From a bacterium (GTDB lineage: Bacteria > Hinthialibacterota > Hinthialibacteria > Hinthialibacterales > Hinthialibacteraceae): a stretch of 64,000 nucleotides of DNA. The DNA is taken from positions 29,450 through 93,449 of the forward strand of contig CAXXSM010000004.1 of the NCBI GenBank assembly GCA_963663405.2. The letters are read 5' to 3'. Each line of letters begins with the position of its first letter. Within the stretch, counting starts at the first letter, position 1. The notes under the pieces are model-generated. The model searched no databases. It was not told where the DNA came from and worked only from the letters and a program-made list of their open reading frames with translations. This document shows, piece after piece, positions 3,130 through 45,602 of the stretch. The translations under genes were made by a program, and so were the position numbers.

Positions 3130-3268
3130 TTCCACCTGGAAATCCTCTTTTAGTTCCAAGCATTTGGATTTCTCAAATTACGCTTTCCCTTTTTCACTTC
3201 TTTTCAACATTGGATCAGTATATAAACTCTTTTTTCAAACACACGATTTTCAAAACGTTGCAGCGTAA

Positions 3269-3284
3269 CCGAAAAATATATAAA
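3269..3284 (+). promoter_or_regulatory. Archaeal-like BRE+TATA motif, probable original promoter of module copy 1; a divergent TATA lies at 3219-3226
   Basis: CCGAAAAA-TATATAAA; positional equivalent of 33841-33856 once the IS at 3307-5414 is removed. Confidence 0.5.
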
Positions 3285-3306
3285 TCCTCTCTTGTTTCCA
3301 CTCTAG

Positions 3307-5414
3307 CCTGAATTTCCACAAGTACTAATTCCCCTAAGAAAACCTATCTAAATTATTGTTATCAATCCATCCCCAGGATCATTTTCTTCAAAGATTGTTC
3401 GGAAAAAATCACATTTTTCAGACTCCGACAAAAATAATGTGTCTTTTTATGCTTAGTTAAATAATAAATCTATAAAGTGCTTGTGTACTTAGATAATACC
3501 AACTATAATATAGATATAAATTACTCTTCTCCAATATATATAGACTTATTTGCGATAGGGTGGATGAGACTATGAGATAGAAGGAGATACAAACCTTATG
3601 TCTACGTTAAGGAATCCGCTAAGACACGAAGCCAAATTCTTCTTGGAACCAGAGAATCCAAAACAACGTCAGTACGAGGCTCTGCGAGCTTATTTTGTTG
3701 AAAATATTCCTGCCAAGGACGCTGCCTACCGTTTTGGATACACACCAGGCGCGTTTCATGTCCTTTGTCACCAGTTTCGCCATGATCCTGATAAAGTATT
3801 TTTTGTCCAAACTCGACCCGGGCCAAAACACAGTCCCAAGAAAGATATTTCTAGAGAACGGATTATTCAACTTCGTAAGAAAAATTATTCGGTGCAGGAT
3901 ATTCACTTCACTTTGAAAGAAGAAGGATTGAACCTCAGTACTGTATCCATTTGGACAATCCTCAAACAAGAAGGTTTTTCACGCCTCCCCAGACGAGCTG
4001 ATGAGGAGCGGCCGAAAAGACCCAGGCCTGAACAAGCCGCTTATGCCGATATTCGGGAACTCTCGTTTACTCCACGCGTTATTGAAACACACCTTGGAGG
4101 TGTATTTTTACTTTATCGAATTCTGGCCGAGATGAAAATTCATAAGATCCCCAAATCTTTACAATGGTATGGATCCAAAATGATCCCTCCAGAAAACGCC
4201 TTTCTCTCTTCTTTATTGCTCAAGTTAATCGGCAAGGAAAGAAAAAGCCACGTCATGGATTTAGTGTTCGATGAAGGGGTGGCTCTTGCGAATGGCCTGA
4301 ACGTCGTTCCCAAGACCGCGTATATTTCAGAATACTCGGAAAGGATTACTCATGAAGACAATCTGAATTTTATGCATTATTGGCTCAAGAATCTTAGAAA
4401 AACGAATTGCATAAAAGGAAAATCCTTCAATTTGGATTTTCAATCCATTCCCTATTTTGGGGAAGAAGATGTGATTGAAAAGCATTATGTTTCCATGCGT
4501 TCTCGCCGTCAAAAAGCCATTTTAGTGTTCTTTGCCCAGGATGCGGAATCGAAAATATTTTGTTACAGCAATTCGGATTTGCGAAAAGGAGAGGAGTCGG
4601 ATGAAATCTTTCGATTTATCGAATTCTGGAAAAAACAAACGGGAAGGAAGCCTCCTCACTTGGTCTTTGATTCACAGCTGACAACCTACAAAAACTTATC
4701 TAAACTGAACCATGAAAATATCACTTTTGTCACTCTAAGGAGGAGAACTCCTCAACTTCTTCAAGAAATTGCGAATGTGCCCCTTTCCGCATGGCGGCGA
4801 ATTAAACTGAGTAATGTGGCCAGGAAATATAAGACTCCGAAAGTGATCGATAAGGAAATACAACTCCGAGATTATAATGGTGTTGTCAGACAACTATTCG
4901 TAAAAGAACTGGGACATGACCTTCCTACTATCATTATTACGAATGATAAAAAAACCTCCTCCTCCGAACTCATTTCACGGTATGCTCGGAGAATGTTGAT
5001 CGAAAATTCTATAGCCAATGGAGTGGATTTCTTTCATAATCGAGCCCTATCATCTTCCGTCGCCATTCGAATTGATTTTGATGTTCTTTTGACTCTTGTC
5101 GGTCAGGCCACTTATCACATATTGGCTAAAAAACTACGAGGATACGAATATTGTGGAGCCGACGTGATTTTCCGAAAATTCATCGATACTCCAGCCAAGA
5201 TCTTCATCGGGAAAAAAGAGATAGAGATACGATTGAACAAACGGGCCAACAATCCTATACTTCTTGAATCGGGCTTAATCAATACTACCTTTAAACTGCC
5301 ATGGGTGAATAACAAAAATTTTATAATTACTCTTCGCTAAGTTTCACAATATGGATTCATGTAATACGTTTATTAGTTAATTTCTTAGATTAATTATTGA
5401 AGTGGAAATCCAGG
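3307..5414 (+). mobile_element. Complete IS with DDE transposase (IS1380/IS4-superfamily-like)
   Basis: Terminal inverted repeats CCTGAATTTCCAC (3307-3319) and GTGGAAATCCAGG (5402-5414), 1 mismatch. CTAG on both flanks (3303-3306, 5415-5418) is a 4-bp target duplication or part of the ends. Confidence 0.9.
3598..5340 (+). CDS. DDE transposase
   Basis: N-terminal HTHs; LDFQSIPYFG / LVFDS / YARRMLIENSI triad; enclosed by inverted repeats. Confidence 0.88.
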   Translation: MSTLRNPLRHEAKFFLEPENPKQRQYEALRAYFVENIPAKDAAYRFGYTPGAFHVLCHQFRHDPDKVFFVQTRPGPKHSPKKDISRERIIQLRKKNYSVQDIHFTLKEEGLNLSTVSIWTILKQEGFSRLPRRADEERPKRPRPEQAAYADIRELSFTPRVIETHLGGVFLLYRILAEMKIHKIPKSLQWYGSKMIPPENAFLSSLLLKLIGKERKSHVMDLVFDEGVALANGLNVVPKTAYISEYSERITHEDNLNFMHYWLKNLRKTNCIKGKSFNLDFQSIPYFGEEDVIEKHYVSMRSRRQKAILVFFAQDAESKIFCYSNSDLRKGEESDEIFRFIEFWKKQTGRKPPHLVFDSQLTTYKNLSKLNHENITFVTLRRRTPQLLQEIANVPLSAWRRIKLSNVARKYKTPKVIDKEIQLRDYNGVVRQLFVKELGHDLPTIIITNDKKTSSSELISRYARRMLIENSIANGVDFFHNRALSSSVAIRIDFDVLLTLVGQATYHILAKKLRGYEYCGADVIFRKFIDTPAKIFIGKKEIEIRLNKRANNPILLESGLINTTFKLPWVNNKNFIITLR

Positions 5415-28033: not shown

Positions 28034-28045
28034 TTTACTAACCCA

Positions 28046-29486: not shown

Positions 29487-29525
29487 CTTCCCTTACAGTT
29501 CTCTGTTTTCACTCTTTCAGGACAA

Positions 29526-29540: not shown

Positions 29541-29564
29541 GTAAAAGGCTCCTTCCTATGCAGC

Positions 29565-31377: not shown

Positions 31378-31532
31378 GGTTCATCACCGTATTCCGGTTG
31401 TCTTTTGGGCGTGAATCGCCGTTTACAGGATTTGCATTGGCGAATTCGAACGCTTCCTTCTTTCAATTTACGATAGCCCCGCCAAATAGTGTTTGACGAT
31501 GAACAATAAGGACATTCAAATAGTTCTTCCAT
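31374..31532 (-). CDS. 52-aa Zn-ribbon protein, not in the ORF track
   Basis: MEELFECPYCSSSNTIWRGYRKLKEGSVRIRQCKSCKRRFTPKRQPEYGDEP; AGGTGAT RBS; ATGA overlap with the next gene. Confidence 0.8.
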   Translation of the reverse strand: MEELFECPYCSSSNTIWRGYRKLKEGSVRIRQCKSCKRRFTPKRQPEYGDEP

Positions 31533-31567
31533 ACTTGATCACCTGTAAAACAATAGGTCTCGACATC

Positions 31568-31607
31568 TATATAAACCTTTCGTTTTTCCAACCGAAACAT
31601 CTATATG
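31568..31607. promoter_or_regulatory. Divergent pair of BRE+TATA-like motifs
   Basis: - strand CGAAAGG-TTTATATA (31582-31568); + strand CCGAAACA-TCTATATG (31592-31607), 30 nt before the SD-less ATG at 31630. Confidence 0.65.
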
Positions 31608-31629
31608 CTTTGCGCATATCCTCAATAAC

Positions 31630-32403
31630 ATGATCATTACACGAAGGAATCCAAATCCTCTGATTGCGGCGATCGATCGTGTTCACGATCGAGTGACAAC
31701 AATCCAGACCATTGCGCGGAATTTTTACTTGGCAGTGCTGCGGATGCGCTACCGGTGCCCCCACTGCGGCCAAAAAATGAAGGTTCACTCTCCTACGACA
31801 TGGCGATGTTCCTGTGGCGTTCAACTCGATCCGACAATCGAGTTTCAACCAAGCCCCTGTTGCAAAGCCAGGTTAACGAAGAAAGTGTATCATTACGTCT
31901 GTACGCAATGCGGCGCTGCGGTTCCGTCCAAATTTCTCTTCGATGAAAGGCTGTTCGACGCGGACTATTTCAGAGAGCGGATGAAAGAATCACGGGAACG
32001 GAAACAACAACTCCGGGAGAGGCTGAGAAAACAACTTGCTGATTCCCGCTCGAAAGAACTGGAATTGGAGGATTATCCCCAATTGGACACCATCCCAGGA
32101 TTGGAACAAGATTTAAACCGGTTGATTGGAACCGAATCGGGGAATGATGTGTTTGCGTTTAATCGTTCGGAGACGTTCTGCATGACCGATTATCACCGAG
32201 CCATTTCCACTCTTGTCAACCAGCGCGGTGTGCTCTTTTCACAAATCCCCGCGTTGCATCCTTCCACACCGAAGGATCGAATCTGGCGGTTTATCACCTT
32301 GATTTTCATGGAACATGACCGGGAAGTCCATTTGCGGCAAGAGGGGGATGATATCTGGGTGTTCAAACGGGATTGCGATGAAGAGATCGAAAACCTTAAA
32401 TAG
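31630..32403 (+). CDS. Multi-Zn-ribbon protein with ScpA/kleisin-like C-terminal winged helix
   Basis: CPHC, CSC, SPCC, CTQC; C-terminal RFITLIFMEHDREVHLRQEGDDIWV. Confidence 0.75.
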   Translation: MIITRRNPNPLIAAIDRVHDRVTTIQTIARNFYLAVLRMRYRCPHCGQKMKVHSPTTWRCSCGVQLDPTIEFQPSPCCKARLTKKVYHYVCTQCGAAVPSKFLFDERLFDADYFRERMKESRERKQQLRERLRKQLADSRSKELELEDYPQLDTIPGLEQDLNRLIGTESGNDVFAFNRSETFCMTDYHRAISTLVNQRGVLFSQIPALHPSTPKDRIWRFITLIFMEHDREVHLRQEGDDIWVFKRDCDEEIENLK

Positions 32404-32770
32404 AACATCTATCCAAGAGATAAATGTGAAACTAACACAAAAGGATTTGGAGTTTATTCAACGGTTGAAAGGTCTGTTTGAGGAGAACGATCTGTCGATC
32501 GAGCTGAAGCAGACCGATCCGAAGACGTTGGTGTTGCGAAAAAATTACGGGACGAAAATAGAGCGCGCGTTTGGCATGACGCGCCAGGGAATCCGATGGA
32601 GGTTCCAACGGTTATTCAATGATATTTACGTGAACGCGTATACAACGATCTATTGGTTAGAATCCAATTTTGGCTCATACCTACGATCTCAGGCGCTTGA
32701 AATCGCGAAAGAACGAGTGACATTACGCAAACGAGTCAATCATGCCAATCAATCCTACCGCCCCAAATAA
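32378..32770 (+). CDS. Hypothetical HTH-like protein
   Basis: IERAFGMTRQGIRWRF; overlaps both neighbouring genes. Confidence 0.75.
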   Translation: MKRSKTLNRTSIQEINVKLTQKDLEFIQRLKGLFEENDLSIELKQTDPKTLVLRKNYGTKIERAFGMTRQGIRWRFQRLFNDIYVNAYTTIYWLESNFGSYLRSQALEIAKERVTLRKRVNHANQSYRPK

Positions 32771-33185
32771 AATGGCTTCGACAAAAATCGAGATCAATCA
32801 CAACACGATAGCCCGGTTAGAATCCGCGGATGAGTTGGCGAGAATTCTCTTTCCAGATAACTCTAATCATCAAAAGATTTTTCTATCGATCTTTGTGGAA
32901 CTGAAATGGGCCAAGGATCAGTTCTTGCCGGTCCTGGATCCCATCGTGGATCAACTGGGACTGAGCCGCCGGAGTTTGGAAACGGTTCGCGCCAAAATGC
33001 GGCGAATGGGGCTGATCGATCATGTCTCCCGGTTCAACAAAACCTACGGCTATCGGGAAGGCTGGGTGTTTTCAAACAAATTTCCCCGGGCCTTAGTGAA
33101 AGTGGCCAATTTAGTTCTAAAATTCCGTGAGAAGAAGGATTCCGTCCAGGAACAGAAAGAAAGGGATCTGATATTTTACCTTTGA
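32742..33185 (+). CDS. Winged-helix DNA-binding protein
   Basis: IVDQLGLSRRSLETVRAKMRRMGLI; alternative start at 32772. Confidence 0.8.
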   Translation: MPINPTAPNKMASTKIEINHNTIARLESADELARILFPDNSNHQKIFLSIFVELKWAKDQFLPVLDPIVDQLGLSRRSLETVRAKMRRMGLIDHVSRFNKTYGYREGWVFSNKFPRALVKVANLVLKFREKKDSVQEQKERDLIFYL

Positions 33186-33566
33186 GAATTCTCTTTTGAT
33201 TGCTGTAAAATACTCAAAAAATGAGTTCAATTTATGTTTCTCGTCGATAAAGTCATATGCATAAGTTCAATGGACAGCCTACACGATAGTAAAGGTATAT
33301 ACCCTCCTAAAATTTCATCCCATTCCGCAAGAAAACTGCATATTTTTCAATCTTTTAGTTGGAGTTCGCTTGTCCCCCCACCCCCTTGCGCTCAAATCAC
33401 ACGCTTTCGCACGGTTTTCAGTAGGAGATCATTTTTGGAAGATCTCCAAAAGATGAGTCACGAAATTTTAACAAGGAAGAAAAAATGAATTCGTTCAGAA
33501 ACCGTCTATTTTGATCGAAAAGGCAGGGGTAAAAAATAACAATTCAAACCAAGACAACTATTTTGA

Positions 33567-33740
33567 CTAATATTTCTTGACTCTCTTGTCTTTCCACTCG
33601 TTCTCAGCCAACCAAATGCGCGGATCTTCATATCGCAGCCGGTAAATAATGTGTTCGACTTTTAGGTTGACTTCTTTGAGCTGTTCTTCAATCCAATCGG
33701 CGATTTCATTCTCGGGTGTGTGGGGTGTGATTCGTTTCAT
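33567..33740 (-). CDS. 57-aa hypothetical protein, not in the ORF track
   Basis: MKRITPHTPENEIADWIEEQLKEVNLKVEHIIYRLRYEDPRIWLAENEWKDKRVKKY; ATG 31 nt after CCGTAACC-TTTAAATA. Confidence 0.6.
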   Translation of the reverse strand: MKRITPHTPENEIADWIEEQLKEVNLKVEHIIYRLRYEDPRIWLAENEWKDKRVKKY

Positions 33741-33763
33741 GGGACAAGGAGAATTGTCACTAC

Positions 33764-33856
33764 TATTTAAAGGTTACGGTTCGCAGTCACTCAAGAGATA
33801 CAACAATCCTCTCAAAATGAAGTTGTCCAAACGCTAAAAACCGGAAGATTTATAAA
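33764..33856. promoter_or_regulatory. Divergent BRE+TATA-like pair upstream of module copy 2
   Basis: - strand CCGTAACC-TTTAAATA (33779-33764); + strand CCGGAAGA-TTTATAAA (33841-33856). Confidence 0.6.
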
Positions 33857-33879
33857 TCGGAGAGAATTCACTTCTGCGC

Positions 33880-34225
33880 AAGAACAACAAAACACCATCC
33901 GAAAGTAGCATCTTTTCCACCAGGAAAATGAGATGACTTTCGGGTTGGAAAATAAAAAAAAGACCACATGAAACCATTGTCCGTATCCGGTTTTGTCCCA
34001 ACAAACCGTTGAACAGCGAATGAATGGTCTGTGGTCAAGACATGAAATCCATACGGGACATTCCCGTCGATAAACGTAAAATGGCGAGATTCGCCTAGTG
34101 AATACTCTCTGCCTCTCTTCTCGATCGATCCGATCGCATTTTCTATTCAAAACCGCATCCAAATAGCAAAACAACCTGGCAGGGCAGATACTGGCCTGCC
34201 AGGCCGTTTTGCCTCAACCATAACA
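33880..34225 (+). ncRNA. Putative structured leader RNA or ssDNA element, copy 2
   Basis: Stems 33899-33906/33936-33943, 33962-33968/34030-34036, 34175-34183/34195-34203; shared motifs at 34004-34019 and 34096-34108. Confidence 0.55.
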
Positions 34226-34239
34226 ATGGAGGTTCCAAA

Positions 34240-34503
34240 ATGAAAGAAACCAATCGAACAAGCAGTACCGTAGAAAGCCAGCCCCAGATCGTTGTGTCAC
34301 GAGCCGTATACGAAACATTGACACCGGAGGAAATCCATCACGCGTTCACGATTCTCTTTGAGAAGATGAAGGTTCCCGATCCAGCCAATCCCAACCTATG
34401 GACCGTCCAGATCAATGGAAGCCGGTTGTGGGGCATCCTGGATGAAGGAGCCGGAACCGATGGACAGAATCTCGTGTCGTTGATTTTTCCAGAGGATTAC
34501 TAA
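34240..34503 (+). CDS. Small PEDY-tail protein, paralog of 5807
   Basis: GGAGG RBS; high similarity to copy 1. Confidence 0.85.
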   Translation: MKETNRTSSTVESQPQIVVSRAVYETLTPEEIHHAFTILFEKMKVPDPANPNLWTVQINGSRLWGILDEGAGTDGQNLVSLIFPEDY

Positions 34504-34535
34504 TTCAATAAAAAAAATGAGGAGGTATCAAAACA

Positions 34536-34973
34536 ATGAAAAACACCAAAAGAAAAGGAAATCGAACGATGAAGGTCCATTACACTATCGTGGATGGAGA
34601 ACACGAGTACTGTGAGACGATCTTCATAAAATCGGATGGTGAAAACAAAGAAGATCAAGCTTACAAGGAACTCGCTGCGATGTACGCGTATGATGCGGAG
34701 GAAGAACGTGAAATCATGGCCAACCTTAAAAGCGATGGAATGGCGATGATCGGTTGCCGGGCCATCAAGGATGTTACAGTCATGGATTTGGATGAAGTAA
34801 CCGTCTTTGTGCGCGGTGGCGTCATCCAGGATATTCAAAACATCCCCGCTGGCGTAAGAATCCGTGTCCAGGATTACGATGTGGACAGTCTCACCGCACA
34901 AGAGCTACGCGAGAAAACGGAACCGGATGAAGAAGGTGATCCATGTATGGTCTCCACTTGGGGAAGTGAGTAA
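34536..34973 (+). CDS. Acidic hypothetical protein, paralog of 6111
   Basis: GAGGAGG RBS; similarity to copy 1. Confidence 0.85.
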   Translation: MKNTKRKGNRTMKVHYTIVDGEHEYCETIFIKSDGENKEDQAYKELAAMYAYDAEEEREIMANLKSDGMAMIGCRAIKDVTVMDLDEVTVFVRGGVIQDIQNIPAGVRIRVQDYDVDSLTAQELREKTEPDEEGDPCMVSTWGSE

Positions 34974-35102
34974 TCCACTTTCCTTTTTCTCACTCCTCGA
35001 ATCATCCTACAAGTTATCCTTCCCCCGCATAGATGATGCGCTACCTCAACATCAATGACATCGATGTTGATTAGTTCTATTTGAATCAATTCATAGGCAA
35101 AA

Positions 35103-35137
35103 GGCCGGATGGAACTCAGGTTCTATCCGGTCTTTTT
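35103..35137 (+). terminator. Internal terminator-like hairpin
   Basis: GGCCGGATGGAAC...GTTCTATCCGGTC + T5. Confidence 0.7.
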
Positions 35138-35181
35138 CAATTTCACCGTAAACCACACGAATCAAAGAAAGGAAAAAGAAA

Positions 35182-35418
35182 ATGTGCATCAAAGAAATCC
35201 AATGCCCGCATTGTGGAAATGAAAATGTGAAACGTATCCAGCTCTGCGTCGTGCTCCCTTCCAGCATCTATCGGAATCTCTACCAGGACGATCGTGGTTT
35301 GATCTGGGCGGAAGAGGAAATCGATTCTGTCGAAGACGGAATCAATCCAGTAATGGAATATCTCTACTGCCAAAACTGTGAGAAAGATTTCACCGATCCT
35401 GGAATCAAGATCCAATGA
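35182..35418 (+). CDS. Small acidic Zn-ribbon protein, paralog of 6753
   Basis: CPHC...CQNC. Confidence 0.85.
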   Translation: MCIKEIQCPHCGNENVKRIQLCVVLPSSIYRNLYQDDRGLIWAEEEIDSVEDGINPVMEYLYCQNCEKDFTDPGIKIQ

Positions 35419-35588
35419 GCTGATAACACTCATTGGAGCCAAGAATAAAGACGAACAGCTCTTAAGCTAAATAGATCCGCCTTCTTTTTGTTTTAAGAGA
35501 TGATATGAACATTGTTACCCACCAACGCTGCAGAGAATCAATTTATGTTACTAGGTTTTACCATTTTAGCGAACGTATCAAGCGATAT

Positions 35589-36329
35589 CTAATTTTTCAA
35601 TTGATTGAAGCGATTGGGATTAGCGTTGTATAAATCATTGGCTAGATGTTCAATGAATTGGTAGGGATCTTGGTTCGTCATTAATATCCTCAAGTGTCCA
35701 GTATCCTGAAAAAATAATTCTCTTTGACGTGGATCAATTGCCTTTTTTGAAAGAAAAAAGAAACAGAAAAAACCACCCAACATTATTCCCACCCATGCAG
35801 TTTCATCAATATCTGACATTCCTATACAGTGTATCATATTAGATGTGATGTCGATATGCTTTGAGGAATAGAGTATGACACACCCGTAAGTTTCTGTATC
35901 CCCTGGCACCTCCGAAAGGAGCATATTCCTGATAGTAGTCTCATGTTTTCCTAGGTTAATAGATGAGAATCCGTCTTGTGTACTTATTCCAACACGCCAA
36001 AGGATCGAAAGTTGAAATAATTTAAACTTTTTATAATCAATTTCACATTCAAAACCTTTTGCACTTTTTGTTGTGGTAGCAATGCATTCTCTCTCATATA
36101 GAACTTTGTGAGCATAACCTTCCCATTGGCTTAATTTGTTTTCACAATTCTTACATAATAATTTTTCACGGATTCCTTTTTGTACAATACGAGGATGCTT
36201 CCTATGCTCCGTGGAGAGAATATTAAAGCGATGCTTGCAGTCATAAAGCTGCATTTTTTCGTAAAAGAATTCCGGAATCACATGCGAGTTACATAGTTTT
36301 GCTTGTTGTAAGCATAGACGGCATTTCAT
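35589..36329 (-). CDS. HNH-like Zn-binding endonuclease-family protein (cargo)
   Basis: CRLC...SHVIP...LLCKNCEN; AT-rich gene. Confidence 0.7.
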   Translation of the reverse strand: MKCRLCLQQAKLCNSHVIPEFFYEKMQLYDCKHRFNILSTEHRKHPRIVQKGIREKLLCKNCENKLSQWEGYAHKVLYERECIATTTKSAKGFECEIDYKKFKLFQLSILWRVGISTQDGFSSINLGKHETTIRNMLLSEVPGDTETYGCVILYSSKHIDITSNMIHCIGMSDIDETAWVGIMLGGFFCFFFLSKKAIDPRQRELFFQDTGHLRILMTNQDPYQFIEHLANDLYNANPNRFNQLKN

Positions 36330-36506
36330 AATATCGTACATTCTTTGCAATCTTTCGTGAACATCACCTTATTAGTATAAATTCTTTTAGAGGTAGTCGA
36401 TCAGAGAATCCTACTTTTAAATTATTTGATTCAGCATACCTTTATCATCAGTTCCAACTGTCAGGCTTGCCAACTTATAACGATATTTTTTACATAAATA
36501 TCACCA

Positions 36507-37412
36507 TCAATTAGCTTTATAGTTAGAGTGCTTGATCTGTGTCACACTCATGTCGCTGTGTATTTGATAAATATATATGTGAAAGTTCTCACCACTAATA
36601 TTTAGTTGGTTCTCGGCATCATCCTGAAGTTCCTTAATACTATCGTAAGAAAGGTTAAGTGGATTGAAGAGCATACTGCGAACCACAACAAGAACTGCGT
36701 CAGCTTCTTTAATGCTAACTTCCATATATCCCAATCTTGCCTTGATTGATCTAGCTTCCATTGATGTAGAAACACTTGGTGCAATCACGGCTACGCGTAG
36801 TCCAGACGATGTAGTATTTTGCTGATCTGAAACATGTGGTGGCTGTTGTGTGGTTCTTGAGCTATCTCCCGCTTGCGCAACAGTAATTAAAAGTAGTTCC
36901 ACGTGTTTGCGTAATACCTCCTTTTCTTCATCTGTAAGTTTATGTAATCCCATTTCATGTTGATTAGCTGGAGGGAAAATATTGTCAAATGTAAGTAACA
37001 CTTTGCCTGGAGTCATGTTGGCTTGTTTCAAACTTAACTCCATATGCAAAAGTTCTTCCAAAGAGTATTGCTTCCAATCAATGTCTTTTTTTGAAGTCTG
37101 CACTATTCGCTTTGCAGTGTTTATCCTCGCTTCAGCATCAATTAACTGTTGCAAGGAGGAATTTTGCCAATCAAGGGTGATCGCGTGTTCGCGTTTGATT
37201 CTTGCCACAGTGTCAAGCCGCAATTCAATGTTAGATATTTCAAGAAGGGAAGCGTTTCGCCAGTCAACATCTATGCCATGGGTTTTCTTGATACGTAAAG
37301 CGGCGCTTTCACGCATATGAGAATCATCTATCTTTGATTGTCCATCTACATAAGTGATGGTAAAAAAGAAAAAAGTGATAAAAGTTGGAAGTAGTTTTAA
37401 ATATGTTCTCAT
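36507..37412 (-). CDS. Secreted hypothetical protein with three ~31-aa repeats (cargo)
   Basis: Signal peptide MRTYLKLLPTFITFFFF; repeats RI......DW...SL..L...E; GGAGG RBS. Confidence 0.75.
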   Translation of the reverse strand: MRTYLKLLPTFITFFFFTITYVDGQSKIDDSHMRESAALRIKKTHGIDVDWRNASLLEISNIELRLDTVARIKREHAITLDWQNSSLQQLIDAEARINTAKRIVQTSKKDIDWKQYSLEELLHMELSLKQANMTPGKVLLTFDNIFPPANQHEMGLHKLTDEEKEVLRKHVELLLITVAQAGDSSRTTQQPPHVSDQQNTTSSGLRVAVIAPSVSTSMEARSIKARLGYMEVSIKEADAVLVVVRSMLFNPLNLSYDSIKELQDDAENQLNISGENFHIYIYQIHSDMSVTQIKHSNYKAN

Positions 37413-37663
37413 TTCAATCAATCCTCCCTTGAGTACTTGATGCATCAGTTCTGTCTACTTCATACAATTGGAAAAAGAGTACGAGAATGACTTTGATTAA
37501 TTGGCCACTCTTATAATTGTTATTTTTTGTGACGCGATCAATTCAATTATGGTTTCTTTTTTATTATAGGCTCAAATAAATGGAGTATACAAGCTGGAGG
37601 TATCAAAAAATAATATATGTAAGATTTACGAACATTTACAGTTTTTTTAATTTCACACATTAA

Positions 37664-37689
37664 CCTGGCTCTTTTGCCAGGATTTTTTT
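37664..37689 (+). terminator. Terminator-like hairpin before the AAA gene
   Basis: CCTGGC-TCTTTT-GCCAGG + T7. Confidence 0.65.
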
Positions 37690-37706
37690 ATTAGAAAGGA
37701 AACGAG

Positions 37707-38801
37707 ATGAATACTATCACCTGTCAGCTTTGTGGAGAGTCAATCCATGGCTCCTTGTATGGTCACTTGGGTGAATGTCACCGTACAACAGCGCAAGAGT
37801 ACCTGAAGCAATATCCGGGCGCGCCTTTGGTGGCTCCCGAATTACTCAACCAGATTCAATCCGGCAAAACCGTCAAACGAACACCGGTTCAAGCCACAGC
37901 GGAATTCCGGATACATGACGCGGCGCTCAAAAAGAGAAATGGCGCAAATCCGATAGTGCCTAACTCTGATCCGCATTACCAATTCCCGCCCGAGGCCGCT
38001 TACCTGATCCACTCCATCAACCACCAGGAAAACGTGATGATCGTCGGTCCGACCGGCACAGGGAAAAGTTCGCTGGTCATGCAGCTCGCCGCCCAGACCA
38101 ATACGCCTTTGCGGCGCTGCAACCTAAATGGCGAGACTACGGTCTCTGATTTCTTGGGACGCTGGACTGTTCGCGGCAAAGAGATGGTCTACAGCGAGGG
38201 CATCCTGCCCACCGCCATGAAGAATGGAGATTGGTTGCTGCTCGATGAGATCGACGCGGCGCTGCCGAATATTCTATTCGTGCTCCAAAGCGTGCTCGAA
38301 GAATGCGGCAAGCTCACACTCCTTGAAAAAGACGGCGAGATTATCGCTCCCCATCCCGATTTTCGCATCATCGCCACTGCCAATACGCTTGGTAATGGAG
38401 ATGAGTCCGGACTATACGCTGGAACGCAGATACTCAACGAAGCCTTCAAAGACCGCTTTGACACAGTCATATATTTGGACTACCCGGATGAGAAGACCGA
38501 AACCGAAATCCTCTCTCAAAAAGTCTCCAACCTAAAAAAGACTGACATCAGACGACTGGTGAAATGCGCTCGCCAGGTCCGGGAAGCGGCGGAACGCGAA
38601 GAGTGCTATTGCAGTTTTTCCACCCGTCGCTTGCTCGCATTCGCCAGGAAATACGATCAACTCGGTAATTTAACTAAAGCGTTGGAACTGACCGTTCTCA
38701 ACAAACTCTCCCGTGATGACCGGCGCGTCGTTGAAGAAATCGCGCAGCGGCGACTGGGAGATCTCATGAATCCCCAACCGAAAGGAGCAAATGAATCATG
38801 A
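37707..38801 (+). CDS. MoxR/CbbQ/CobS-like AAA+ ATPase, intact
   Basis: Zn finger C..C...H...H, GPTGTGKS, LLLDEID, IATANT, FSTRRL. Confidence 0.92.
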   Translation: MNTITCQLCGESIHGSLYGHLGECHRTTAQEYLKQYPGAPLVAPELLNQIQSGKTVKRTPVQATAEFRIHDAALKKRNGANPIVPNSDPHYQFPPEAAYLIHSINHQENVMIVGPTGTGKSSLVMQLAAQTNTPLRRCNLNGETTVSDFLGRWTVRGKEMVYSEGILPTAMKNGDWLLLDEIDAALPNILFVLQSVLEECGKLTLLEKDGEIIAPHPDFRIIATANTLGNGDESGLYAGTQILNEAFKDRFDTVIYLDYPDEKTETEILSQKVSNLKKTDIRRLVKCARQVREAAEREECYCSFSTRRLLAFARKYDQLGNLTKALELTVLNKLSRDDRRVVEEIAQRRLGDLMNPQPKGANES

Positions 38802-40679
38802 AGAATCTAAGCGGATTAGAAACAACCTTGGAACGTGTTGGTCGAATCTTGTCACGCAAGTACAACATCTCGGTCCAATGCAAAGGAAACGAATGCAAGA
38901 CCGACGGCCGGACTATCTGGCTGCCGGCGCTGCCGGACGAGATCTCTGAGTCGTTATGGAGTTTGGTCCGTGGCGAGCTGGATCATGAGACCGCCCATAT
39001 CCTCTTCAGCGACTTTGATGGCCGCATGAAGAATTTCAAACAGAAATGGGGCGATTTCGGATTCGACACACTTAATGTCATTGAAGACGTGAGAGTCAAT
39101 TACGCCATGCAGAAGGAGTATCCGGGTTCCCGTCACAACATCCTGCACAGTATCGCGGAGATCACTCGTACCCATCCCATCGATCAAATGCCTCTCCCAG
39201 TCCGGTTCTTGTGTGGTCTGTTCCTCGCTGGAATGGATCTGCTCTATGACCAGTATGGCGAAGACGCGATCGGAATGGTGGAACAATTCAAGAACGATGC
39301 GGAGCGGTTCAAATCCCTCCGTAACACTGACGAAGCCTGCGCAATGGCGGAAAGTATCCTGGAACGCCTCAAGCATAAAGCTGAGCAAGAAAGACAACCT
39401 TCAAATTCAAAGCAGCAAAATAGCGCGGAAAAGAACCAAGAATCACACTCACAATCCTCATCCGGTGAATCCAAACAAGAATCAACAGAGAAGGAGCAGC
39501 GATCAGCAAAATCCGCTTCCTCTAACGGTCAAGAAGAATCTGACAATCGGCAAAACAGTTCTGGGGAACAAAAGGATGATTCTATGGATAAACAAAAATG
39601 GTTCTAGTTCAGATGCGCATTCAAACATGAAAAGCAGTCCACAAGATGAATCTGAGAATGGAAATCAAGGAGCTATGGAGCAAGCCCTACACGGACAATA
39701 CTCATCCACCGGCCATCCATTCGAGCTCCAAGGCACTATCAGAGAGCAAGTCCAAGAAGAATTCAGCAATGGAACAAACCAAGCCTACCGGGTATACGAT
39801 CCATCGCTGGATAAAGCTGTCACGCCTCTATCATTGGATAACGGTGAAACCTATCAAAACCTGAGCAATGTCGTTCGGCCTCATGTAGGCGCTCTTCGTC
39901 AGCAGTTGATTCGAACTCTCCGCTCGCGCGATACCCGGTTCTGGGTCAACGACCAAGAAGAAGGCCAGGTCAATAGCAAAAGGCTTTATACGCTACTCAA
40001 CCAGGGCTCGAACAAAGTCTTCCGACAAATCCAGGAATGCGAATCGGACTCGGTGGCGGTGTCGCTTCTTATCGATCTATCCGGCTCGATGAACGGCCCA
40101 CGCATCTACCTGGCCCGCCAGGTCGTCATTCTGTTCGCTGAAACACTCAACCAGCTGCGTATCCCGTCAGAGGTGATCGGTTTTACAACCGAGCCTTCCA
40201 AACGGGCCTTCGCTCGATTGACACGGGAAACGGGGATGGATTTGCAACAACTCTCCACACTCTACACCCGTTTCTTTCCCTGTGTCTATTCCATCTTCAA
40301 GGCGTTCGACGAACCATTCCGAGCGTTGAAACCGCGCGTTCCCGCCATGAACGCCCTGGAGTACACGCCCATCGATGACGCTATCATTTTCGCCGCTAAA
40401 CGGATCGTCTTTCGGAAGGAAACGCGAAAAATCATCCTTGTCCTTACCGATGGAGAACCGTATAGCGGAAATCCAACGATGCAGCTGGCTGTCATCAAAC
40501 ATCTTGTAGAAAATCTGCGCAAATGCGAACAGGCCGGAATCGAGTGTGTGGCCGTTGGCATCCAAGCGGATTACGTAAAGAATTTCTTCAAAGAGAACGT
40601 AGTCGTTCAAAACCTGCCCGAACTCCCCAAAGCGTTCTACACGAAGTTCTCGGAATTGCTCCGCAGAAACCGCAAATAA
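38798..40679 (+). CDS. CobT-like HExxH + vWA protein; one frameshift near 39595 in an A run
   Basis: LDHETAH; DLSGSM; LTDGEP; two overlapping ORFs join in the linker. Confidence 0.88.
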
Positions 40680-40721
40680 CCTGCAACAAATAACCATTTA
40701 ATTTCGAAAGGAGATTTATCA

Positions 40722-41192
40722 ATGGGTACCTGTGTCCAAAATCCATCCTGCTTCGCCCTGTTTGATCCCATCGCTCCGGAATGCGCGAGCTGTGGCATAC
40801 AAACCAATTGTATGCGTGAACAAGAAAGACGCCTTGGCGATTGTGATTCAAAACAACCGCAGCAGAGCGTCGAAACGACGCCAACATCGAATCAAAGCTT
40901 AAAACCGAAAAGAAAGGAGAAAATCCAAACCAAGATTCCAAGCCAAACCGGAGATGAGCAATACATCCCCGAACATACTCGCAAACCATTGGAAATCCCG
41001 CCGGTTGGCTCCACGATTCAAACCACCTACCGTGGTAAAACCTACGAAGCGATCATCGTGGACGATCCATCCAACAAACGCTGCGATGGCCGATCCATCC
41101 TGTTCAACGGAACCGTCTATCGAACACTGACCGCCGCCGCGCACGCCATTGCGCCTGGAATCAATTCTGGATCGGTCTGGCAAGAAATCTAA
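40722..41192 (+). CDS. Cys-motif plus RAMA/DUF2924-like protein, paralog of 10105
   Basis: As copy 1. Confidence 0.78.
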   Translation: MGTCVQNPSCFALFDPIAPECASCGIQTNCMREQERRLGDCDSKQPQQSVETTPTSNQSLKPKRKEKIQTKIPSQTGDEQYIPEHTRKPLEIPPVGSTIQTTYRGKTYEAIIVDDPSNKRCDGRSILFNGTVYRTLTAAAHAIAPGINSGSVWQEI

Positions 41193-41215
41193 AAAAAACC
41201 AGAAAGGAAAACACC

Positions 41216-41566
41216 ATGAATAATAACGGCAGTAAAACAGCTAACGCAAAATCAAACCGAAACGTCGGCCGTGGATTACGTGACATCCTGACCGAACAAT
41301 CGATCTTCGACAGCCATTTCAACGATCTTCAAGAGCATGTTAAAGCCGCCCGGATCGGCGCGGCGATTCTCGAACTGATCGATATCGTCGAAGCCAAATA
41401 TCAACCGGTCATCTTCAAAAGCGTCACCGCCTATCGCGCTGTAGCTCAGGAAGAATCCACCGAAGAAATCGGACGAAAACTTAACGATCTGGAACGTCAA
41501 CGTATCCATCGTGAAACGGAATGTCAGAAACCGAAACGGCGATGGTATTTTCTATTCTTACGGTAG
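41216..41566 (+). CDS. GRGL-motif hypothetical protein, paralog of 10594
   Basis: As copy 1. Confidence 0.85.
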   Translation: MNNNGSKTANAKSNRNVGRGLRDILTEQSIFDSHFNDLQEHVKAARIGAAILELIDIVEAKYQPVIFKSVTAYRAVAQEESTEEIGRKLNDLERQRIHRETECQKPKRRWYFLFLR

Positions 41567-41585
41567 GATTGATTGCGATGAATTG

Positions 41586-41608
41586 AAGGGGAGAAATCCC
41601 CTTTTTTT
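41586..41608 (+). terminator. Terminator ending module copy 2
   Basis: AAGGGGA-GAAA-TCCCCTT + T run. Confidence 0.75.
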
Positions 41609-41747
41609 AAGGAATTATCTTCCATATTGAAAATTATTAGTGGACATAATCCAGCTGGATTCTCTGAATTATTTCATGCTTTTACTTACTTCGATGAGAT
41701 CCTCCAGCCAACTGGTCCAACGGTGGCCAGTTAGCCGGAGGATACAA

Positions 41748-42596
41748 ATGAAACCAAACCAAAATACCAAAGATCGGATCCAACAAAGCCGGAAAATCAT
41801 CCAGGAGACCATCGCCAAATTGGGGGAACAGCTGGAGAAAGGATACTCCATTGAGATGACTCGATACCTGAAAACCATGGCGCTTTTCCATGCGTACTCC
41901 ACCTCCAATCAGTTTCTCATTTTGGCCCAGCGCCCCGAAGCCACGCAAGTCGCCGGATTTCAAACCTGGAAACGCCTCCATCGATCCATTAAACGCGGCG
42001 AAAAAGCCATCCGCATCCTCGCTCCGGTTTGCTACAAGAAGAAAACAACTTCAACACAGTCAAAAGAAACAAAGCAAGAAGACTCGAAAGAGCCAGTCGA
42101 GGAAGACCTAATATATTCCTTCCGCACGGTCTGTGTTTTCGATCAAGCACAGACGTATGGCGCAAAACTACCGGAACCGTTTCGGGCACAAGGTGAAGCG
42201 AGGCAATGTCTTTCCATGCTGGAGCAAACTGTCCGAAGAAATGGAATCCAACTTGATTATGGATACACAGGCCGGGCGTACGGCTATTCCAAAAAAGGAT
42301 CCATTACGATCAAAAAGGGGATGAATTCCGCGGAAACCTTCGCTGTGCTCGCGCATGAGTTTGCCCATGAATTGCTTCATCAAAGACAAACGTCCAACGA
42401 TTCCTGCTCGTTGCGTGAATTGGAAGCTGAAGCCGTCGCCTGTGTTGTCTGTGAACGGTTCAGCGTACAGGCTATCCAAGCGTCGTCCGATTACATCCGT
42501 CTCTGGGAAGGTGACAAAACCAAGCTACTCAATCGTCTGGAGAAGATCCGCCGATGCGCATCCACAATCATTACTCAGATCGAATCTCTCACATAA
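41748..42596 (+). CDS. ardC: ArdC-like ssDNA-binding / metallopeptidase antirestriction protein
   Basis: FHAYS..NQ.LI..Q.P.ATQVAGF..W......IKRGEKAIRI.AP; VFD..QT.G; HEFAH; ELEAE; GGAGG RBS. Confidence 0.85.
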   Translation: MKPNQNTKDRIQQSRKIIQETIAKLGEQLEKGYSIEMTRYLKTMALFHAYSTSNQFLILAQRPEATQVAGFQTWKRLHRSIKRGEKAIRILAPVCYKKKTTSTQSKETKQEDSKEPVEEDLIYSFRTVCVFDQAQTYGAKLPEPFRAQGEARQCLSMLEQTVRRNGIQLDYGYTGRAYGYSKKGSITIKKGMNSAETFAVLAHEFAHELLHQRQTSNDSCSLRELEAEAVACVVCERFSVQAIQASSDYIRLWEGDKTKLLNRLEKIRRCASTIITQIESLT

Positions 42597-42840
42597 AAGG
42601 GGAAGAATTTACACTACGCAGGGATTGATTGAAAATCAATTGTCACATGCAGTGGTTGGTCGTGAATCTTGGAATCATTCAACGGATTCTTCCGAATGGA
42701 GGTATTCCAAGATTCTATTTATCCTAGACTGGAATAGGCTCTATAGAACGTCAATCGAAATGTAAAAGGCAAATACTCCTGGAATCACTGAAATCGGATT
42801 CTCTTTCCGCAATGCTTCACTCCAATGACTTTATTTTCCC

Positions 42841-44823
42841 TTATTTTACAAAATCTTGGACTTGTTTCACTTTGATGGGGATCTTTGTATTCGTTTCCTC
42901 AATCACTTTTAATATCTGATTCTGCGCCTCTGAATTGGTGGTTAGAATAAAAATACCTCGATAATCTCCCGCTAGATTTTTACGAATATTTTCCCGCCAA
43001 TTTGATTTTCCCGTTTCGATCTCTACTGCGATTCTCTGGCCATTCTTTTCCGCCACAAGATCGGTATATCCATGGCCGGATTCTTCTTTCGTTACAGTCC
43101 AACCCAAATGAACGAATTGTTGCGCGGCTTTCTCTTTCCAAAATTCATGTTCCAGACTGCCCCAACGAGATTTATCCGGAACATCAAGATCCATATTTCG
43201 TAGACAGACTCTGCCCTTTGGCGTTAATCCCAACAGAACCGTTTTCCCGCTGTGTGTCCGTATCTCTTCCGGTACGATCAATCCTTTTTCGATGCATGAT
43301 TCCCGAATTACGTTTCCTTTCCGGCGGCTTAGATGAAGATGCCGGTACCGTTCCACCGCGCCAAACAGTGGATTCTGAAACACATTGATTAAAAAGGTTT
43401 TTTCATTCTCATTCAATTCAACAGTGGTAGCATCCTCATCACCATTTACGATCTCATCATAATCAGCATAGGGATTCAGGATATTCCGTTCTACCATGTG
43501 CTGCGCCAAAGCGGTATCGTTCACCGAACCTTTAGGGATTTTTCGATGGGGAATCGAGATCTCAAATGGTTGCAGCCAACGCCCCTGGAGTTTGACGACT
43601 GCTCGACCGATTGGCAGCCGGCCCAATAATTCCCGCTCTTCATTGTCAATCAGCATCGCCCCTCCCGCCGCGTTGACATCGGACCGGTGTTTCAGATTCA
43701 TGCAAATCGTGGCGTAGGTGTTACCCATCGCGGGAATCGAGATCAAACTCGGATGCTGATCCACCAATACGATCCCTTCTCCCAGTTCCCGGATTTCACG
43801 GAGAATGGTGTCTGTGATCGCTTCACCGCCGCTTCCGGCGCCGGATCGTTTCAATAAAATATGATGGGCTTCCTCGATGATCATGGCGTGTTTGAAGGTC
43901 TCCCGGTCCGGCTGCGTCAAACGATAATGATGAATCCAAAGCAAGAGAGACTCGATCGTGAACGTTTTATCCGCATTCGTCAGGCTATCCAATTCCAAAA
44001 TTACATTTTGGTTTAAGAGATCCCCCACATTCGATTGAACGCTGGTGTTCATCACGTTTCCCATATGCCCAAAACAGATCGATCGAACACCCCGCAGGGC
44101 GGAATCCATCCATTGCGCTTTTCGCCCTTTGACTGGATGTTTTTCGAGCCATTCCAGAACATCTTGAAAGGTTGGATATTTAGGTGGATTTCCTTTGTAC
44201 ACATTGAAGGAGTGATACACCGCATCGATCGCTTCCTGGAGAAGATACATGACGCCTTCTCCCAAGTAGTAGGAGTGAGCGATAATCTCGATCATTTTTT
44301 TGAGCCAAACCGCCGCGCTGGTTCCTTCCGGAGGAATCAGTGGATTGAACGCGAAGGGAACGGTCTGCCCTCCAACTGTATAAACCAAGATTTCATCCTT
44401 CCGCACGGATAAAAGATCCCGGTAATTCCGCTTCCAGTCAAACAAAAGGAACGGCTTTTTTTGATCCAGCAAACTCTCCAGAAGGACAAACACCGTATTG
44501 GTTTTTCCCGCTCCCGACCGGCCAAAGATCGCTGTATGTTGAATCAGTTCATCTTCCCGCAGCCCAAATGCATGAAGCGGCCGATCGCAATAGACCACCG
44601 AACCGAGGTTATATTGGCCAAATGCTTTATCCGCTGGCGGCGCGGATAAATGAACATCAGGAACCTGAACGTTCACGCCCAGGTGTTGAGCGGCTAACAA
44701 CTGTAACGCGATCTCCAATTCCTGTTTCCCGCGATTGTCCTCGGCCAGATAGGCCAACCACAATCGATCCGCTCGATCGCCTAACACGGGTTTCAGCTTC
44801 CGGCATAATTCATAAACCTCCAT
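42841..44823 (-). CDS. HerA/VirB4/TrwB-like P-loop ATPase with C-terminal winged helix and PD-(D/E)xK-like domain
   Basis: HTAIFGRSGAGKT, FDWK, FNPL, IIEEAH, REIRELG...DQHPS; YTDLV...IAVEIETG; AGGTGAT RBS. Confidence 0.88.
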   Translation of the reverse strand: MEVYELCRKLKPVLGDRADRLWLAYLAEDNRGKQELEIALQLLAAQHLGVNVQVPDVHLSAPPADKAFGQYNLGSVVYCDRPLHAFGLREDELIQHTAIFGRSGAGKTNTVFVLLESLLDQKKPFLLFDWKRNYRDLLSVRKDEILVYTVGGQTVPFAFNPLIPPEGTSAAVWLKKMIEIIAHSYYLGEGVMYLLQEAIDAVYHSFNVYKGNPPKYPTFQDVLEWLEKHPVKGRKAQWMDSALRGVRSICFGHMGNVMNTSVQSNVGDLLNQNVILELDSLTNADKTFTIESLLLWIHHYRLTQPDRETFKHAMIIEEAHHILLKRSGAGSGGEAITDTILREIRELGEGIVLVDQHPSLISIPAMGNTYATICMNLKHRSDVNAAGGAMLIDNEERELLGRLPIGRAVVKLQGRWLQPFEISIPHRKIPKGSVNDTALAQHMVERNILNPYADYDEIVNGDEDATTVELNENEKTFLINVFQNPLFGAVERYRHLHLSRRKGNVIRESCIEKGLIVPEEIRTHSGKTVLLGLTPKGRVCLRNMDLDVPDKSRWGSLEHEFWKEKAAQQFVHLGWTVTKEESGHGYTDLVAEKNGQRIAVEIETGKSNWRENIRKNLAGDYRGIFILTTNSEAQNQILKVIEETNTKIPIKVKQVQDFVK

Positions 44824-44825
44824 TT

Positions 44826-45422
44826 TTATCGATCACCTGACAGCAGATAACCTTTGCGATTCTCCTGGGAAAACTCGCGCATAACTTCGCGTAAATCGCT
44901 TTTTAACCGGGTGATATCTCGCCAGCACGCCACCGATTCCATCCGCTTCTCACGTTCAAACGCAATCATCTCCCGTTCGAGATTGGAGCGCAGTTTATCG
45001 ATGTTGGGATTCAGGCCGATGGGAATGTAGTAGATTTCATACAGTTTCTGGGAGATGTAACAGGAATCCCGATCGATCCGGTAACAGTTCGTATCCCGTA
45101 AATATTCTCGTTCATAAATCATCCCCAAAATATCTTCCACGCTTTTCGATAAAAACGCTTTCTTATCCGCCAGAAAATGGTTGATCGGATCCCTCGTTTT
45201 TTCAGATCGGATTCCATCAGTCAGCGCATCCAGATGAGTGGGGGACAAAACTTTGTCCGAGTCAATCTCTCCAGAGTAAGTTTCCGGTTGTTTAAGGGAC
45301 AAGGATTTAGATTGGGAATAAACCGATGAAGAAGGATTCAAATAATCCGTTCTCGATTCCAAGCCCATATAAGGCGTATGTTGATTGTAGTTTGATTGTC
45401 CGAAATTCAATGTAATCACCAC
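44826..45422 (-). CDS. Hypothetical coiled-coil protein, co-oriented with the ATPase
   Basis: Second copy at 63597-63980; CGTAACA-TTTATATA at 45470-45456. Confidence 0.8.
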   Translation of the reverse strand: MVITLNFGQSNYNQHTPYMGLESRTDYLNPSSSVYSQSKSLSLKQPETYSGEIDSDKVLSPTHLDALTDGIRSEKTRDPINHFLADKKAFLSKSVEDILGMIYEREYLRDTNCYRIDRDSCYISQKLYEIYYIPIGLNPNIDKLRSNLEREMIAFEREKRMESVACWRDITRLKSDLREVMREFSQENRKGYLLSGDR

Positions 45423-45602
45423 GGCTGTTGTTTCTATATAGTGGTGATGAAGTGATATATAAATGTTACGATTTTGAGCCGAAAAATCTACAATCCTCTT
45501 ACAACATAGTATTTTTTTTTTTACTTATTCATGGCTTATATCATAATACCTAAAAATTACAAAATAAGAAGCCATATTTTTTCTATGTTTTGTGATTAAC
45601 AC

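Follow-up and report, generated by a model that had tools for sequence, protein, structure and literature searches.

Few molecular features separate Bacteria from Archaea as sharply as the architecture of their promoters. Here we analyze a promoter-like motif of archaeal type in a 64-kb stretch of bacterial DNA (hereafter the window; part of contig C4 of assembly GCA_963663405.2), where it marks an integrated element with an ~18-kb core that encodes an Orc1/Cdc6 replication initiator. Among the closest described systems are archaeal core promoters. In an M. jannaschii promoter analysis (Zhang, Li and Olsen 2009, PMC2699501), the TATA box reads TWTATATA, like the methanogen "A box" TTTATATA; the B recognition element (BRE) covers nine bases lying upstream of the TATA box, with −34 highly conserved; A, C, C, and G are over-represented at −40 to −37; and a G-rich Shine–Dalgarno (SD) signal lies at +14 to +19. 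A preprint on divergent transcription (10.1101/2020.01.31.928960) gives the T. kodakarensis BRE as 5′-CGAAA-3′ and describes bidirectional promoters that share TATA boxes.

The initial annotation of the window had reported a recurrent BRE-plus-TATA motif at near-fixed distance from start codons. Aligned on their octamer, its nine sites read (a)CCGnAAnn-TTTAWAWA, and the octamer is like the archaeal TWTATATA/TTTATATA at nine of nine sites. Setting the octamer at −31 to −24 puts the element's A, C, C, and G at −40 to −37 and its near-invariant A at −35 and −34, which follows the published methanogen plan position by position. In both systems the BRE lies on the upstream side and sets direction, and the 22–26 nt from octamer to first mRNA signal (ATG or SD) compare with 23 ± 2 nt to the start site in the archaeal descriptions we draw on. 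Judged by sequence, the motif is real, element-specific, and conserved across bacterial phyla, and it is almost certainly the element's promoter; its base pattern and spacing are those of an archaeal BRE/TATA promoter.

Position and specificity of the motif

All nine strings are present on the strands and at the positions first given (3269+, 27509+, 29307−, 29526+, 31582−, 31592+, 33779−, 33841+, and 45470−), and measurement from the octamer's first T to the start codon bears out the spacings of 31, 32, 30, 31, 38, 41, and 43 nt. Enrichment over background, on which the initial annotation had staked its claim, is clear: The strict form, CGNAANNTTTAWAWA, matches four times in the window; 100 dinucleotide-preserving shuffles average 0.12 matches, and none of them reaches four. 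A one-mismatch pattern matches eight times (3.19 ± 1.85 in shuffles, with 2 of 100 reaching eight), each time upstream of a correctly oriented gene.

Within the core the motif heads all eight transcription units, and the three divergent intergenic regions carry one site per direction (Table 1). One site was missed by the initial annotation: It overlaps the stop codon of the gene at 31630–32403 and precedes GTG 32426, which orthologue alignment identifies as the true start of its gene. Among the genes so headed, that at ATG 31532 encodes a 52-aa Zn-ribbon protein and is the first in an operon of three small genes, and GTG 45422 opens a 198-aa protein followed by a HerA/FtsK-like ATPase (42841–44823). 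The four sites at 30–32 nt lack an SD sequence, as first reported, with GGAG, GAGG, AGGT, and GGTG all missing near the start codon.

The earlier impression that cargo genes lack the motif also holds. No site stands in promoter position in the variable and cargo parts, which comprise the 11334–23428 island, the 35424–37674 insertion, and the FG-GAP, sigma/FecR, pseudopilin, and 2904-aa protein genes; the island contains no BRE/TATA-like site at all. Outside the core, a position weight matrix built from the nine sites finds few matches of at least 11 bits: the 3269 site, a weak outward site at 45479, two within the open reading frame (ORF) 50489–51922, and one within the 2904-aa ORF.

Table 1. 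Window coordinates of the element core, the promoter-like sites, and associated genes and repeats
Feature	Position	Strand	Context or basis
Integrated Orc1/Cdc6 element core, ~18 kb	27507..45475	.	blastn of window against own genome
BRE/TATA-like site CCGAAAAA-TATATAAA	3269..3284	+	Outside core, ~320 nt before ORF 3598-5340
BRE/TATA-like site TCCAAAGA-TTTATAAA	27508..27523	+	Left element edge, 38 nt before ATG 27554
BRE/TATA-like site TCGTAAAA-TTTATATT	29293..29308	-	31 nt before ATG 29269 (407-aa membrane and coiled-coil protein); no SD
BRE/TATA-like site AAAGAAGA-TTTAAATA	29525..29540	+	32 nt before cdc6 ATG 29565
BRE/TATA-like site ACGAAAGG-TTTATATA	31568..31583	-	23 nt, then AGGTGAT (SD), then ATG 31532
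BRE/TATA-like site CCGAAACA-TCTATATG	31592..31607	+	30 nt before ATG 31630; back to back with the 31568..31583 site
BRE/TATA-like site TCGAAAAC-CTTAAATA	32387..32402	+	Added in this analysis; 31 nt before GTG 32426
BRE/TATA-like site CCGTAACC-TTTAAATA	33764..33779	-	31 nt before ATG 33740 (57-aa protein)
BRE/TATA-like site CCGGAAGA-TTTATAAA	33841..33856	+	Heads a ~390-nt conserved noncoding leader and a long rightward operon, 34240 to 42596
BRE/TATA-like site TCGTAACA-TTTATATA	45456..45471	-	Right core edge, 41 nt before GTG 45422
Orc1/Cdc6 AAA+ initiator, 423 aa	29565..30836	+	Pfam Cdc6_C 7e-21, Cdc6_lid, AAA_16
Box GAAGATTTCC(N3)GGAAC, first of three (18-21 nt)	29343-29360	+	Repeat search
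Box, second of three	29473-29490	-	Repeat search
Box, third of three	29573-29590	+	Repeat search
Conserved operon, three proteins without known family	31630..33185	+	Alignments, models
257-aa protein: two Zn ribbons, coiled coil, C-terminal winged helix	31630-32403	+	Model
Helix-turn-helix (HTH)-like protein, 114 aa from GTG 32426	32426-32770	+	Alignment, model
Winged HTH protein, 147 aa	32742-33185	+	Alignment

The motif is confined in the same way at the scale of the genome. The assembly (8.44 Mb in 170 contigs, 47% GC, 82% complete) holds 21 strict matches, 15 of them within four copies of one element on contigs C4, C86, C110, and C141; the six elsewhere equal the number expected from base composition (~6). 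The distance to ATG has no preferred value among the 2830 TTTAWAWA octamers in the rest of the host genome. The motif is therefore a property of the element rather than of host promoters, and its specificity to the element is shown.

The host is bacterial by its 16S and 23S rRNA, and its small-subunit rRNA scores 1545 bits against the bacterial model and 1067 bits against the archaeal one. A misbinned archaeal contig was considered as a source of the window and rejected: C4 carries a sigma-70-family gene, and the element family is present in complete bacterial chromosomes.

Spacing and conservation across bacterial phyla

To compare independent genomes, we scanned 115 loci (1.01 Mb) from other genomes with the matrix, trained solely on the nine window sites. 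At a threshold of at least 13 bits and with near-duplicates removed, the set comprises 149 sites: the nine from the window and 140 from 62 other loci. Among these 140, ATG begins 30, 31, 32, 33, or 34 nt from the first T of the octamer in 12, 14, 4, 12, and 5 cases, respectively. The sum of 47 compares with 13.8 expected from other distances (Poisson P ~2e-12), and there is no ATG excess at 14–20 nt or at mirrored upstream positions. Widening the interval to 29–35 nt gives 56 sites, of which 40 open ORFs of at least 40 aa in 16 protein families—among them Cdc6, the 257-aa protein, the 407-aa membrane protein, ParA-like ATPases, and lipoproteins—and the other 16 are about the number expected by chance. 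Within one protein family the distance stays in the range of 30–34 nt.

A second translation signal falls in the same place. SD-like tetramers start at 31–33 nt in 19 of the 140 sites, with a low background elsewhere. Orthologues of the 52-aa Zn-ribbon gene have 23–25 nt between octamer and AGGTGA at 12 of 14 nonredundant sites, exactly 24 at 10 of them, and the spacer sequence itself has diverged. AUG and SD alike thus begin 22–25 nt after the octamer, which is most simply read as the point where the RNA starts.

The upstream block can be examined apart from the matrix. Octamers were selected by regular expression together with an ATG at 30–34 nt that begins an ORF of 60 codons or more, which gave 30 nonredundant cases in other genomes. 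At positions −8 to −3 these carry C, C, G, A, A, and A at frequencies of.47,.63,.53,.63,.87, and.87, against.19,.20,.23,.36,.37, and.43 in 357 control octamers. The CCGAAA block is no selection artifact. Position −9, which lies outside the matrix, is A in 81 of the 149 sites. The results free of matrix bias at the tested positions are this octamer-selected test, the ATG-distance profile, and the SD-start counts, and only these.

The initial annotation had called for a check of conservation in homologous elements, and motif and spacing are indeed kept in elements of other bacterial phyla. A TATA-like box recurs at much the same position ahead of cdc6 orthologues from other phyla, including those in loci of 56–60% GC. 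Cdc6 relatives with 53–70% identity occupy 35 genome loci, all with bacterial record titles; no archaeal record is among them (0 of 35), a count obtained with subfamily-specific search patterns that archaeal relatives may escape. Carriers belong to Hydrogenedentota, Sumerlaeota, Desulfobacterota (Thermodesulfobacteriota), Spirochaetota, Bacteroidales, and Zixibacteria. They include closed chromosomes of metagenome-assembled genomes (4.8–8.2 Mb) and three cultured organisms: Desulfosarcina variabilis Montpellier, with a complete chromosome (L018), strain NaphS2 (L013), and Desulfocarbo indianensis (L021/L024). A further 80 loci come from metagenomes, and IMG/VR yielded no Cdc6 relative. Public data hold at least 1414 relatives of the 147-aa winged-helix protein (E up to 1e-5). 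Named relatives among the 120 matches listed for it are bacterial, as are all named relatives of Cdc6, and the Atlas clusters nearest two core proteins are 100% Bacteria.

The element also behaves as a resident of these genomes. The window's own genome holds three further core copies (C141, C110, and C86; ~88–93% identity), and synonymous divergence (dS) among the four is ~0.1–0.7, with a nonsynonymous-to-synonymous ratio (dN/dS) of 0.02–0.25 for most genes. Footprinting among the four copies is uninformative, their intergenic regions being about as conserved as the genes. Across loci, the GC content of cdc6 tracks that of the far flanks (r = 0.79, n = 19). Bacterial loci, purifying selection on the copies, and GC content that follows the flanks together indicate that the elements are long-term functional residents of bacteria.

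These observations bear directly on a truly archaeal account, in which TBP (the TATA-binding protein), TFB (transcription factor B), and archaeal polymerase act at the motif in archaeal hosts between which the element shuttles, or the sites are relics of a recent archaeal origin. Promoter sequence and spacing are archaeal, the replication module is archaeal in type (Orc1/Cdc6 with boxes like origin recognition boxes, ORBs), and leaderless mRNAs are translated in all domains of life. Set against this are the 35 genome loci without an archaeal record and the bacterial named relatives, the four or more copies per bacterial genome under purifying selection, the GC content that follows the flanks, and a motif kept across ~45% protein divergence, which is not expected of relics. 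We regard this account as very improbable. Expression in an archaeal host, the first of two alternatives in the initial annotation, is likewise disfavored by residence in bacterial chromosomes including those of isolates, by multiple copies, by purifying selection, and by the tracking of flanking GC content.

Two observations from the other loci stand apart. At L017, L029, L042, and L046, the motif lies 30–33 nt before the ATG of predicted lipoproteins of 171–194 aa with bacterial-type lipobox signal peptides, a family in which a bacterial export signal sits beneath an archaeal-style promoter. L115, a metagenome contig whose Cdc6 is more distant (41%), also encodes a phage tail-tube protein and a Sak single-strand annealing protein and has two sites that resemble the motif; the contig may be that of a tailed virus whose replication gene is of this type. 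A full-text literature search, with subscription journals mostly outside its reach, found no description of bacterial Orc1/Cdc6 elements or of archaeal-type promoters in bacteria.

Transcription start and the factor that reads the motif

The pattern suggests a mechanism in which every transcription unit of the element would begin with an aCCGAAAnn-TTTAWAWA core promoter and RNA synthesis would start 22–25 nt past the octamer. The mRNA would then open either with AUG, as a leaderless message, or directly with the SD sequence; in the SD-first messages the 5′ end would fall at the G or A opening GAGGTGAT. The reader would be bacterial RNA polymerase guided by an element-encoded DNA-binding factor.

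Evidence on the reader comes from what the hosts and the sites lack. TBP, transcription factor IIB (TFIIB)/TFB, the TFB zinc ribbon, and Rpb5 (PF00352, PF00382, PF08271, and PF01191) have no match in the assembly, which is 82% complete; the same search matched in four archaeal genomes used as controls. Five other carrier genomes have no TBP or TFIIB match. Across the 149 sites, positions −48 to −10 each carry <0.1 bit, which leaves no −35 element, and positions +8 to +57 reach ~0.2 bit at most, which leaves no −10-type block ahead of the ATG. With no TBP or TFB in the hosts and no −35 or −10 at the motif, bacterial polymerase acting with an element factor is the most likely reader.

Candidates for that factor lie near cdc6. 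The most conserved companions of Cdc6 are the 257-aa, HTH-like, 147-aa winged-helix, and 52-aa Zn-ribbon proteins, and the Zn-ribbon and winged-helix proteins encoded at 31374–33185 are our candidates for the reader. The AlphaFold model of the 257-aa protein (predicted local distance difference test score, pLDDT, 75) shows two Zn ribbons together with a long helix, a coiled coil, and a winged helix at the C terminus. Searches of Protein Data Bank (PDB) sequences with the core proteins of unknown family returned nothing significant. An element-encoded factor that lets bacterial polymerase read the motif was the second alternative of the initial annotation, and it is the one that we infer.

Several points weigh against this scheme. 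Bacterial RNA polymerase is not known to open DNA in the absence of a −10-type element, and the TAWAWA hexamer of the octamer shares the T and A of a −10 box. The start 22–25 nt after the octamer is deduced from spacing, and the training sites of the matrix were chosen in the initial annotation with an eye to the archaeal consensus. Pfam, NCBIfam, and PHROGs searches show no element protein that resembles TBP, TFB, TFE, a sigma factor, or a polymerase. The best fold match of the 257-aa model is not significant (E 0.011), and that of the HTH-like protein, modeled as 130 aa from the upstream ATG 32378 (pLDDT 80), has E 0.49. The three operon genes were detected within 5–10 kb of cdc6 in only 13–16 of 26 long loci, and 10 of the 26 lack all three in the stretch examined.

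On balance, we tentatively favor the combination of transcripts that start 22–25 nt after the box with an element-encoded factor that guides bacterial polymerase, and we put it slightly short of an even chance. A broader formulation, possible in our judgment although we would not count on it, is that the elements carry their own TBP/TFB-independent initiation system, with a bacterial or other polymerase starting ~23 nt past the BRE/TATA and making leaderless or SD-first mRNAs. As part of that formulation, the archaeal promoter grammar would have arisen in bacteria by convergence or would have been inherited from an archaeal element ancestor together with the Orc1/Cdc6 origin module. For the initial annotation's central claim, this means that the archaeal-like BRE and TATA stand on sequence, geometry, cross-phylum conservation, and the match to the published methanogen promoters; the near-leaderless mRNAs depend on 5′ ends read from the spacing.

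Comparison with bacterial promoters provides the main alternative. TAWAWA may be the −10 box of a housekeeping sigma factor or of a small phage-type sigma, for which T4 late promoters (TATAAATA) are the model; transcripts would then start ~7 nt past the octamer and carry leaders of 16–20 nt, and CCGAAA would be an operator or an inherited accessory. A+T-rich boxes often act as −10 elements, and the octamer agrees with the opening TA of a −10 box, having T at position 3 in 137 and A at position 4 in 135 of the 149 sites. The hosts, moreover, are bacteria with many sigma-70-family genes; the present assembly has 40 sigma-70 region-2 matches, one of them within the window. The likeness to sigma-70 promoters (−35 TTGACA and −10 TATAAT, including −10-only and extended −10 forms) consists of an A+T-rich box containing TA and of bacterial hosts.

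Several features depart from that pattern. The would-be −35 region holds no information, and the hexamer ends in A at 123 of 149 sites, where TANNNT calls for T. The conserved CCGAAA block, whose signal is as strong as that of the octamer, would occupy −22 to −17 of the spacer, and no sigma-70 contact there accounts for it. A −10 box also gives no reason for the ATG excess and the 19 SD starts to coincide at 30–34 nt, or for a spacer that keeps its length while its sequence diverges. TANNNT stands at the place needed for a bacterial leaderless start in 2 of the 56 ATG-linked sites. A consensus scan of the core finds 24 sigma-70-like sites, against 31.7 ± 5.8 in shuffles, and none at motif sites. 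We consider the −10 account unlikely.

Promoters of extracytoplasmic function (ECF) sigma factors, which have a −35 of GAAC/GAAAC type with a T tract and a −10 of CGT type, call for separate comparison. The element's CGAAAC or CGTAAC, with T-rich sequence behind it, looks like an ECF −35, and the ~37 nt from block to ATG would also place the start near the ATG. Unlike in ECF promoters, no conserved −10 block lies 16–17 nt downstream, and the octamer is conserved as strongly as the upstream block; the −35-like block is present and its matching −10 is missing. The only sigma gene linked to the element is the ECF-like cargo gene at 52021–52521, with a FecR partner, which stands beside three of the copies.

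The motif could instead be the binding site of an element regulator or an RNA-level signal, with transcription arising from weak host-type promoters nearby. The element does encode several small HTH, winged-helix, and Zn-ribbon proteins, and the inverted CCRAAAG blocks of two loci (L008 and L009) can be read as a palindromic operator. Most sites, though, are nonpalindromic; they are strand-specific and head every unit, and the divergent regions leave no space for another promoter. There is no second conserved block, and an operator would not be expected to keep a fixed distance from the first translation signal. A regulator site therefore strikes us as improbable.

What is at stake depends on where transcripts start. 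In bacterial chromosomes of at least six phyla, elements with an archaeal-type Orc1/Cdc6 origin module keep, under selection, a complete promoter grammar of archaeal type: An extended BRE sets the direction and is followed by a TATA box and a spacing of 23 nt. If the starts deduced here are true, bacteria would hold an undescribed route to initiation from such promoters, likely supplied by one of the element's abundant family-less DNA-binding proteins. Such a route would bear on the exchange of transcription systems between domains and would give a portable, host-independent expression module. If transcripts instead start 7 nt past the box, the motif would be an ordinary −10-type promoter with an unexplained upstream block and spacing rule. 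The three cultured carriers make the question directly testable.

The element, its setting, and its archaeal counterparts

The initiator has an AAA+ domain, a lid, and a C-terminal winged helix, and it is similar to archaeal Orc1 over its full length, as expected of Orc1/Cdc6; its closest solved structures are the archaeal Orc1 entries 2qby_A and 2v1u_A (E ~1e-45 over residues 64–413). Two of the three boxes listed in Table 1 are inverted and flank a 100-nt A+T-rich stretch, and the third lies within the first cdc6 codons. From this arrangement, 29343..29590 is a putative Orc1-type origin with ORB-like boxes that overlaps the cdc6 promoter. Similar TTCCnnnTGGAA palindromes occur upstream of cdc6 at other loci, for example TTCCAGTGGAAA in L021/L024.

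Other core genes code for a HerA/FtsK-type ATPase, an ArdC-like protein, a MoxR/VWA pair, and several small proteins without a family; the 407-aa product is a membrane and coiled-coil protein. The 2904-aa ORF encodes a surface-type multidomain protein, not a polymerase. A diverged second copy (82–84% identity) of the module of MoxR, VWA, and two small genes at 37674–41553 lies at 5882–10945, outside the core and adjoining a defense-type island.

Two sites head long leaders. The noncoding leader at 33857–34239 (~390 nt) is conserved among the four element copies and ends in a GC-rich hairpin with a T run (~34180–34215) just ahead of the SD-led gene at 34240; it could be a small RNA, a riboregulator, or an attenuator, and Rfam gave no family in 27000–46000 at E up to 0.1. 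Upstream of the core, an A+T-rich leader of ~320 nt precedes ORF 3598–5340, which encodes 580 aa of no family, and the 3269 and 33841 leaders have only the 20-nt promoter block in common. Window positions 3303–5421 are 100% identical to a stretch of C141.

The surroundings are mosaic. The island at 11334–23428, which looks like a restriction- or BREX-like defense system, encodes an SNF2 helicase with NOV_C, a DEAD/Helicase_C_2 helicase, DUF1156, a DNA methylase-like protein, and DUF499. Immediately left of the element, 23666–26836 holds two insertion sequences: one with an rve/DDE transposase, the other with an IS91-like Y2 transposase fused to a phage-integrase domain and present in ~15 genome copies at ~89% identity. 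To the right, the 48083–54082 block contains FG-GAP proteins, the very divergent ECF-like sigma (23–29 bits), FecR, and an N-methyl pseudopilin, and it recurs at ~91% identity beside the C86 and C110 copies. The sigma/FecR block has no homologue in the 115 related loci, which marks this block as lineage-specific cargo. The final 392 nt of the window and of contig C4 (63609–64000) repeat 45051–45442 at 90% identity, indicating that another element copy begins at the contig break.

At the level of the replicon, the element resembles archaeal Orc1/Cdc6 replicons in its initiator, in the inverted repeats around an A+T-rich stretch, and in its HerA/FtsK-type ATPase. Unlike them, the element family was found in bacterial chromosomes only, within what was searched; no MCM was seen in the element, and it travels with ArdC, MoxR/VWA pairs, and bacterial-type lipoproteins.

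At the level of the promoter, three differences accompany the shared sequence and geometry. The hosts are bacteria with no match to TBP, TFB, or Rpb5, unlike archaea, and the archaeal reader is not found in the cell. The element's SD begins at the deduced 5′ end, compared with +14 to +19 in M. jannaschii. Element sites show a weak pyrimidine bias and no evident A+T-rich proximal element, unlike archaeal promoters. One arrangement has the layout described for the shared-TATA bidirectional promoters of Thermococcus: At L008 (11672–11695, and identically in L009), a single octamer lies between inverted BRE-like CCRAAAG blocks, CCAAAAGG-TATTTATA-CTTTTCGG, and serves as the only box between two divergent core genes, the sole clear case of this layout that we saw.

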